Assembly: GCF_000026545.1 (NCBI RefSeq)
Contig: NC_011601.1
DNA from: Escherichia coli O127:H6 str. E2348/69
Lineage (GTDB): Bacteria; Pseudomonadota; Gammaproteobacteria; Enterobacterales; Enterobacteriaceae
Direction: 5' to 3' (one strand)
Length of the DNA stretch: 64,000 nt
In this document: positions 41,334 to 42,566 of the stretch, in pieces
Numbering within the stretch: the first letter of the stretch is position 1
How the letters are laid out: each line of letters starts with the position of its first letter
Notes under the pieces: generated by a model
Database searches by the model: none
Seen by the model: the letters and a program-made list of their open reading frames with translations, nothing else
Told to the model about the DNA's origin: nothing
Made by a program: the position numbers and the translations under genes

Positions 41334-42566
41334 ATGTATCGGGATACCCGTCGTGAACATATTGTCCGGTTACTTCGCAACAAGGATGAGTGCAGTGTTA
41401 GCGATTTAGCTAACTATTTTTCTGTTACCAAAGAGACGATTCGGACAGATTTAGCGTGGTTGCAAAAGCGTGGTGTAGTGAGTCGTCATCATGGAGGCGT
41501 CTCATTGAAAAAACATTTAATGCAAAATGCGCTTTCGCAACAAGAGTATGTCGATATGAGTTTGCTTATCAAGCAACAACAGCAGGGTATTGGCTATTTA
41601 ACCTCGCTTGATGATAAAGGACGCCGAATGGTAGGTAAAGTTTGTGTGTTAGGATCATTTAACGTCGATATTGTGGCGAAAGTGTATCGCTTCCCGAATG
41701 AAGGCGAAACGTTAGTGGCCAGGGAAACTACCATGGGGCCGGGGGGTAAAGGCGCGAATCAGGCACTAGCCGCTCATCGGGCAGGTGCGCAAATACACTT
41801 CGCCTGTAAGATTGGTCGCGATCAGTTTAATCATTTTGCCCGCAATCATATTGAGTCCATTGGTATTGATTCATTTACTTTTTATGAGTCTGAACTATCT
41901 ACCACCGGTTGTGCGGTCATTTATGTAAATGATGAAGGTGAAAACATGATTGCTATGTCTCCAGGGGCAAATCATGAATTAAGTGATAACGATATTATTC
42001 AACTTTCTCACTTTATAGCCGAGTCCGATGTATTCATTGTACAGATGGAAAATAATCTTGCCGCTACTCAACTGGCATTAAAATGTGCTCAAAAAATGCA
42101 GGTGACAACGATTTTGAATCCTGCACCGTGGTCCAGTGATGTCGCCACATTATTACCTTTTGTTGATATTGTGACGCCAAATGAAACCGAAGCATCGGCG
42201 ATGTCAGGTATGGTAATTGACAATATTTCTGATGCTGTGAAGGCTGCGAAGCATATTTATAATGCCGGGCAATGTTCAGTAATTATTACGATGGGAAAAC
42301 GAGGTGCATTAATTTATGACGGGCAACAATGTGCGCATATTCCGGCATTTTCGGCAGTCGCTGTAGATACAACAGGTGCGGGTGATGCGTTTAATGGCGC
42401 GCTCGCCGCCGCACTGGCGAAGGGAGAATCACTTGTTAAAGCAGCCTGGTATGCCAGCGCTTTCGCTTCGCTGGCAGTAGAAAAAGAAGGGGCAGCCAAT
42501 ATGCCTGATATCTCTCTGGTGGATGCCAGAATTCAGCAGCAGAATGTTGCCATTCAGACTTTCTGA
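41334..42566 (+). CDS. DeoR-type HTH regulator fused to a PfkB/ribokinase-family sugar kinase
   Basis: 410 aa; residues 1-60 resemble DeoR/GlpR N-terminal wHTH (...TIRTDLAWLQKRGVVSRHHGG); residues about 100-410 align with ribokinase (GGKGANQA, VNDEGEN, LNPAP, VDIVTPNETEA, AVDTTGAGDAFNGAL); RBS aaggaag; low GC. Confidence 0.75.
   Translation: MYRDTRREHIVRLLRNKDECSVSDLANYFSVTKETIRTDLAWLQKRGVVSRHHGGVSLKKHLMQNALSQQEYVDMSLLIKQQQQGIGYLTSLDDKGRRMVGKVCVLGSFNVDIVAKVYRFPNEGETLVARETTMGPGGKGANQALAAHRAGAQIHFACKIGRDQFNHFARNHIESIGIDSFTFYESELSTTGCAVIYVNDEGENMIAMSPGANHELSDNDIIQLSHFIAESDVFIVQMENNLAATQLALKCAQKMQVTTILNPAPWSSDVATLLPFVDIVTPNETEASAMSGMVIDNISDAVKAAKHIYNAGQCSVIITMGKRGALIYDGQQCAHIPAFSAVAVDTTGAGDAFNGALAAALAKGESLVKAAWYASAFASLAVEKEGAANMPDISLVDARIQQQNVAIQTF

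Follow-up and report, generated by a model that had tools for sequence, protein, structure and literature searches.

Regulators of the DeoR/GlpR family (DeoR, GlpR, AgaR, SrlR, FruR, FucR) combine the winged helix-turn-helix (HTH) HTH_DeoR with a sugar-phosphate-binding domain, DeoRC, through which an ordinary member of the family senses a phosphorylated intermediate of its pathway. In BirA, NadR, PutA and the archaeal RbkR, a DNA-binding domain and a catalytically competent pathway enzyme share one polypeptide chain. In the ROK repressors NagC, Mlc and XylR, an HTH is joined to a sugar-sensing domain of the sugar-kinase type. Here we describe a gene of Escherichia coli O127:H6 str. E2348/69 (contig NC_011601.1) which encodes a PfkB kinase in the position that DeoRC occupies in the DeoR/GlpR family. 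The gene is located at 41334-42566 of the window, the whole stretch of 64,000 nt that was analysed, and it is fairly probable that its product acts as a bifunctional kinase-regulator of the operon in which it stands first.

The fusion gene encodes 410 amino acids (aa). It starts with an ATG, 5 nt downstream of the sequence AGGAAG at 41324-41329, and it corresponds to WP_000285497.1 in the RefSeq annotation of the enteropathogenic E. coli (EPEC) O127:H6 strain E2348/69, to which the region is 100% identical. The gene, the parts of its product, the candidate operator and promoter elements in its leader and the four genes that follow it all lie on the plus strand. WP_000285497.1 carries the labels "rbsK, ribokinase" or "PfkB family carbohydrate kinase", and the current naming as ribokinase or rbsK conceals the regulatory half of the protein. 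In Pfam searches HTH_DeoR (PF08220) covered residues 6-58 (41349-41507; E-value 5.3e-15) and PfkB (PF00294) covered residues 102-390 (41637-42503; E-value 7.9e-68). DeoRC (PF00455) and ROK gave no match in these searches; the sugar-kinase domain is of the PfkB type. The NCBIfam models GlpR, SrlR and AgaR matched the N-terminus only (residues 3-68). The two domains are separated by a linker of about 40 residues (59-99; 41508-41630), which is variable in sequence except for Q64 and L67 and is predicted to be disordered. A model calculated by AlphaFold2 with 40 homologues (mean predicted local distance difference test score, pLDDT, 83.6) exhibited two confident domains, with pLDDT values of 79-93 in the HTH_DeoR region and below 50 for residues 60-90 in between. 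A search of the PDB yielded no solved structure spanning both halves; the best match was E. coli RbsK (1gqt) over residues 100-402 with an E-value of 4e-55.

A preliminary description of the gene had read its first 60 residues as a DeoR/GlpR-type winged HTH and the remainder as a complete PfkB/ribokinase domain with both signature motifs, substituted for the usual DeoR effector domain. The profile searches and the structure model bear out this reading, and both motifs are present, GGKGANQA at residues 137-144 and DTTGAGDAFNGAL at residues 345-357, the latter with DTTGAGD at 345-351. Lacking DeoRC, the fusion protein belongs to the DeoR family only in part.

At a DNA identity of 99% or more, 571 E. 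coli genomes carry the gene with the same full-length architecture. All 120 best database homologues contain both Pfam domains and are 398-418 aa long, except for one truncated E. coli allele of 332 aa. They originate from Klebsiella, Citrobacter, Vibrio, Photobacterium, Aeromonas, Rahnella, Dickeya, Pectobacterium, Erwinia, Brenneria, Serratia and other genera. An exhaustive search of 1.8 billion cluster representatives revealed about 20 clusters of full-length fusions, as defined by 50% identity, which extend down to 34% identity and are followed in the same search by ordinary ribokinases of about 310 aa. The suspicion that two separate genes had been joined by a frameshift, which the preliminary description had raised as a check, finds no support in this single conserved frame.

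Broken alleles also occur. P0121 is an N-terminal fragment of 143 aa that is present in 79 E. coli sequences and diverges after residue 117, P0008 is the truncated E. coli form of 332 aa, and P0301/P0302 is a split pair of DeoR and ribokinase in one Pectobacteriaceae genome. Annotation pipelines label the fragments of broken alleles separately as 'DeoR family transcriptional regulator' and 'ribokinase'. Such alleles are rare and nested within full-length clades; they are derived pseudogenes and not ancestral forms.

The DNA-binding half shares with the DeoR/GlpR family the winged helix including the HGG motif after the wing. In an alignment of 40 orthologues the residues R6, T35, R37, D39 and G54-G55 were invariant and H53 nearly so. 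The HTH is kept across the whole family, to 34% identity, and appears to be under selection, although it diverges faster than the kinase (32-82% versus 56-81% identity). The recognition helix usually reads TKETIR, with TGQTIR in Photobacterium and SQETIR in Salmonella. A search with the N-terminal 99 residues alone retrieved only fragments of the same gene and indicated no DeoR subfamily as donor of the HTH.

The kinase half has the PfkB fold of E. coli RbsK (1gqt/1rkd) and is 38% identical to the K-12 enzyme, from which the fusion protein differs by an extension of 100 residues, comprising HTH and linker, and by the operon in which it is encoded. The ribose ligands N14, D16, G42, K43, N46 and E143 and the catalytic D255 of RbsK correspond to N110, D112, G138, K139, N142, E239 and D351, all of which are kept, as are the G41-G42-K43 and NXXE motifs and the GAGD base. 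These ligand and catalytic positions (GGKGANQ, NXXE, DTTGAGD) are invariant in the 40 orthologues, down to 49% identity. The score in the ribokinase model TIGR02152 lies just above the cut-off (300.9 versus 299.65) and that in the equivalog model NF008353/PRK11142 below it (273.5 versus 341); its place in the RbsK equivalog is borderline. Relative to RbsK, the lid and pocket carry the changes F101Y, G111A, I112M, I251T and A252G. In more remote fusion clusters N110 is replaced by S or F, which suggests other specificities.

The intact residues predict that the kinase half is an active ribokinase-type pentose kinase. In RbsK the exchange A98G raises the activity with D-arabinose (PMC9604405). 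The equivalent of A98G was sought in the orthologue alignment and is absent, Ala194 being invariant; hence, the pocket does not separate ribose from arabinose. D-Arabinose or another pentose would be as likely a substrate of the predicted O5 phosphorylation as D-ribose. The acidic sugar ligands favour a neutral pentofuranose over a sugar acid as substrate. The possibility that the kinase acts on an imported acid itself was considered and appears unlikely, since the acidic ligands D112 and E239 are kept.

A candidate operator was detected in the leader of the fusion gene. The leaders cannot be aligned between genera except for common tandem 10-bp direct repeats, TTTTTGTTTR followed by YTTYYGTTTN, which lie about 90 nt ahead of the coding sequence in nearly all orthologues and are represented in E2348/69 by TTTTTGTTTG and TTTTTGCTTG at 41240-41259. 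Twelve fusion loci contain the pattern TTYYGTTTNYTTYYGYTT exactly once each, on the coding strand and 73-110 nt ahead of the start codon, and its occurrence at 41240-41259 is the sole match in the window even when one mismatch is allowed. Control loci were obtained in a contig scan with peptide patterns common to all ribokinases, which yielded at least 78 plain ribokinase loci, used as negative controls, and at least two fusion loci. In 80 control loci (about 0.9 Mb) the pattern had no match. A Raoultella locus, obtained after the pattern had been fixed, also carries the repeats.

Among the orthologues with upstream DNA, only that of Photobacterium rosenbergii (locus L090, 5880-6000) is devoid of the TTTTGTTT repeats and has CTTTTATTTTCA/CTTATTTTCA at the same position. 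The repeats of the Salmonella homologue contain GGTT where GTTT stands elsewhere. Together with the deviating recognition helices of both genera, this suggests that helix and operator may co-vary. The conserved repeat fits a putative operator for the HTH. A credible Rfam match or a riboswitch was not found in the leader.

A possible third, degenerate repeat, TTTTTTCTTG, is located at 41266-41275, as read by eye from the alignment of E. coli, Klebsiella and Citrobacter; in Vibrio TTTTTTGTTTG stands there. It overlaps a CRP-like site, CTTGA-N6-TCCCG at 41272-41287, which resembles TGTGA-N6-TCACA. In most orthologous leaders the CRP-like 16-mer starts 12-13 nt past the second repeat. It agrees with the consensus at eight of ten positions in Citrobacter, Vibrio and clade b (most genera) and at nine in Salmonella, and is weak in E. 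coli, with six, and in Klebsiella. The candidate -10 hexamer GATAAT at 41308-41313, 32 nt past the possible third repeat, is conserved in E. coli, Klebsiella and Citrobacter, and Vibrio has TAGAAT at an equivalent distance. Taken as the -10 element, GATAAT would place the transcription start at about 41321; the CRP-like site would then be centred near -41.5, and the repeats would span about -46 to -80. A simple sigma-70 promoter scan did not call the proposed promoter due to its poor -35 element. Directly upstream of the repeats, at 41211-41234 and within the island DNA, there is a hairpin with a 10-bp stem and a T-rich tail, which might act as a terminator of araC read-through.

The five genes of the operon form a block that stands in the order araD-araA-araB, araC, five-gene block, yabI, thiQ. 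The block (41114-46580) is sited exactly between araC and yabI; E. coli genomes without it are homologous up to about 41113, just past the stop codon of araC, and some of them up to 41192. The G+C content is 0.38-0.49 within the block versus 0.54-0.60 in the flanks. Among 5426 complete E. coli genomes 581 (about 11%) contain the block, always on the chromosome, and "island", the term chosen in the preliminary description, is a fair one for it. In Klebsiella spallanzanii the block is likewise sited at the araC|yabI junction, with proteins that are 81% identical.

The fusion gene is followed by a class I aldolase-like gene of the DHDPS/NAL family (42592-43515; best PDB match with an E-value of 6e-19), which belongs to a divergent subfamily, and by tctC (43570-44523), tctB (44572-45009) and tctA (45019-46506) for a tripartite tricarboxylate-type transporter, as annotated in RefSeq (together 43570-46506). 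An arrangement with the fusion gene at the head and the DHDPS-family gene within 17-100 nt downstream of it recurs in 12 genera; a transporter gene follows the aldolase gene wherever the locus reaches that far. The TctCBA version is found with the same gene order in E. coli, Klebsiella, Citrobacter, Vibrio and Photobacterium, and a version with a transporter of the MFS family in Dickeya, Pectobacterium, Rahnella, Aeromonas, Erwinia, Acerihabitans and Raoultella. A DUF386 gene precedes the MFS gene in most of the latter loci, with Erwinia and Acerihabitans as exceptions. When a locus was sampled by its aldolase gene, in Raoultella, the fused kinase again lay upstream, and the DHDPS-like gene adjoins the fusion gene in every locus sampled for it. 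None of the clusters examined contains another regulator or a second kinase, and the fusion protein is the only candidate regulator of its operon. Among the 78 plain ribokinase loci listed, none has this aldolase gene or an HTH adjoining.

The aldolase-like protein scores below every NCBIfam cut-off and keeps, as read by eye, the equivalents of Tyr140 and of the Schiff-base lysine Lys168, the residue pair of class I pyruvate aldolases. An assignment as DapA or NanA was rejected: besides the scores, R138 of DapA is replaced by Pro145 and the GxDE motif of NanA is absent. The DUF386 protein of Dickeya resembles the N-acetylneuraminate anomerase NanQ with 125 bits, below the cut-off of 160. The cluster thus appears to resemble a nan-like pathway for another cyclic 3-deoxy-2-ulosonic acid, in which import and ring opening would be followed by aldol cleavage to pyruvate and an aldose, the aldose then being phosphorylated by the fusion protein. 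Some E. coli strains have a second version of the DHDPS-like gene (P0406, 67% identical), and another form of the cluster may circulate in this species.

Fusion proteins are also encoded outside this type of operon. The Salmonella enterica fusion cluster (408 aa, more than 3000 member sequences) is 45% identical to the E. coli protein over the full length. Its gene stands in the order ttrBCA, fusion gene, GATase1-like gene, hydrolase, amino-acid permease, pykF, and from this context we take it to be orf408 (STM1382) of Salmonella pathogenicity island 2 (SPI-2). orf408 (locus L093, 8001-9227) is likewise the first gene of its operon, and its leader (7900-8000) has a corresponding layout, in which a near-perfect CRP site, TGTGAttgaatTCACC, lies past the two tandem repeats CATTTGGGGTTA and CTTCCGGTTG. 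The downstream genes, for a GATase1-like protein, a hydrolase of the proline-iminopeptidase family and an amino-acid permease, differ from those of the E. coli operon, and the imported substrate is presumably different. In Superficieibacter electus (locus L008, 21-5416) a fusion homologue heads a third type of operon, with an NCS1-family transporter and an 889-aa protein without NCBIfam match behind it. Since fusion genes head several operon types, the kinase-regulator seems to be a reusable module.

In the preferred reading as a bifunctional kinase-regulator, the C-terminal pentose 5-kinase would phosphorylate the neutral sugar that the DHDPS-family aldolase releases from the imported acid. 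The N-terminal winged helix, on its flexible linker, would bind the tandem TTTTTGTTTR repeats just upstream of the CRP-dependent promoter of its own operon and thereby control the fusion gene, the aldolase gene and the transporter genes by autoregulation. Occupancy of the active site by the sugar, by sugar and nucleotide or by the sugar phosphate may alter the kinase dimer and, as a consequence, DNA binding. An enzyme that makes a sugar phosphate would thus stand in for the domain that senses one. The analysis shows the domain architecture, the intact catalytic residues, the conserved operon and upstream motif and the lack of another regulator, whereas we infer that the protein is active as a kinase and recognises the repeats, as well as its substrate, its effector and the direction of its control. 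The preliminary description had proposed either a regulator sensing its inducer through the kinase active site or a moonlighting enzyme-regulator, and had called either an unusual control logic. The domain composition, the position as sole regulator candidate in a conserved operon and a leader repeat that fits an operator speak for such a function. "Unusual" was an overstatement: the architecture is widespread in Gammaproteobacteria, it is already present in sequence databases, under the name 'ribokinase', and in SPI-2 as orf408, and enzyme-regulator fusions are established.

Among known systems, the fusion protein resembles the DeoR/GlpR family in the predicted control of a sugar catabolic operon via repeated short operator elements, here the candidate repeats. 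With BirA, NadR, PutA and RbkR it shares, to judge from its sequence and the AlphaFold2 model, the union of a DNA-binding domain with a competent enzyme; the folds of these proteins are unrelated to those of the fusion protein, for which a ligand control of DNA binding is only proposed. RbkR, a winged HTH joined to riboflavin kinase, is the closest in logic (PMC5397151). The logic also resembles that of the ROK repressors; these have the ASKHA fold and are not active kinases, whereas the PfkB domain of the fusion protein looks catalytically intact.

Several observations weigh against the kinase-regulator reading. Owing to the disordered linker, the AlphaFold2 model is silent on communication between the domains. 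The repeat pattern was counted in the very loci that had served to define it, which leaves the controls and the Raoultella locus as the only independent evidence. The co-variation of helix and operator is a suggestive trend drawn from three cases, the CRP-like site of E. coli is weak, and the proposed -10 element and transcription start derive from conservation. A search of a literature collection of 8 million papers found none that describes or tests a DeoR-ribokinase/PfkB fusion or this gene cluster, and orf408 was mentioned there by name only. Finally, from about -46 to -80, upstream of the -35 element, the repeats could serve activation or co-activation as well as repression.

By family precedent we favour a repression that is relieved by the sugar. 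The same kinase-regulator may act with the opposite sign, the sugar-bound protein co-activating transcription together with CRP from the repeats, a possibility that we take seriously without considering it probable. It would agree with the position of the repeats beside a class-II-like CRP site, with the poor -35 element and with FucR, a DeoR-family activator. However, proteins with a DeoR-type HTH are mostly repressors, and the possible third repeat overlaps a CRP-like half-site, which fits a competition with CRP.

It is quite unlikely that the protein is a regulator only, in which the kinase domain was kept as a ligand sensor, as in NagC and Mlc, and that the released sugar is processed by RbsK or similar housekeeping enzymes. 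E. coli does have a separate RbsK, a distinct protein with 38% identity, and the conservation of HTH and putative operator would also be expected of a mere regulator. The invariance of GGKGANQ, NXXE and DTTGAGD across the orthologues, however, exceeds what a sensor needs, and no cluster provides another kinase. Very improbable is the converse, an enzyme with a vestigial or non-specific HTH in an operon controlled by CRP or other trans-acting factors. The RefSeq and NCBIfam names as ribokinase and the faster divergence of the HTH are in line with it, but the HTH is retained even in the most distant fusion clusters, its recognition-helix residues are invariant, and a conserved repeat at a fixed position matches it. 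Split and truncated versions in some genomes (P0121, P0008, P0301/P0302) could point to an artefact in which a frameshift or a wrong assembly has merged two genes. This explanation is refuted: 571 complete E. coli genomes and independently assembled sequences from more than 12 genera have an uninterrupted frame, and the split forms are rare and nested in full-length clades.

The preferred kinase-regulator may be placed in a wider physiological context. Kdo (3-deoxy-D-manno-octulosonate) is a sugar acid of lipopolysaccharides, capsules, plant rhamnogalacturonan II and algae. It is a rather doubtful but specific proposal that the island represents the missing catabolic pathway for Kdo and that HTH_DeoR-ribokinase fusions are flux-sensing kinase-regulators. 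TctCBA or the MFS transporter would import Kdo, the DUF386 protein would open the ring in the MFS version, and the DHDPS-family protein would act as Kdo aldolase (EC 4.1.2.23), yielding pyruvate and D-arabinose. The fusion protein would be a D-arabinose 5-kinase that feeds arabinose 5-phosphate to KdsD and, upon binding D-arabinose in its active site, turns on expression of the operon. Kdo as substrate would suit the environments in which the carriers live, i.e. gut, plant tissue and marine algae. More widely, HTH_DeoR-ribokinase fusions including orf408 would serve pathways that free a pentose from imported conjugates. On the breakdown of Kdo, the literature search found only papers stating that no gene is annotated for the Kdo aldolase (PMC10619137, PMC12199768).

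If the kinase-regulator reading holds, the fusion protein would be a bacterial DeoR regulator whose sugar-phosphate sensor was exchanged for the kinase that makes the sugar phosphate, a compact flux-reading regulator and a possible scaffold for biosensors. The neighbouring DHDPS-like gene at 42592-43515 would be a good candidate for the Kdo aldolase activity, for which no gene is annotated according to the literature (PMC10619137). The finding would also open a first functional approach to a family of which orf408 of SPI-2, long without explanation, is a member, and to an operon present in about 11% of the complete E. coli genomes, among them that of the EPEC prototype E2348/69.

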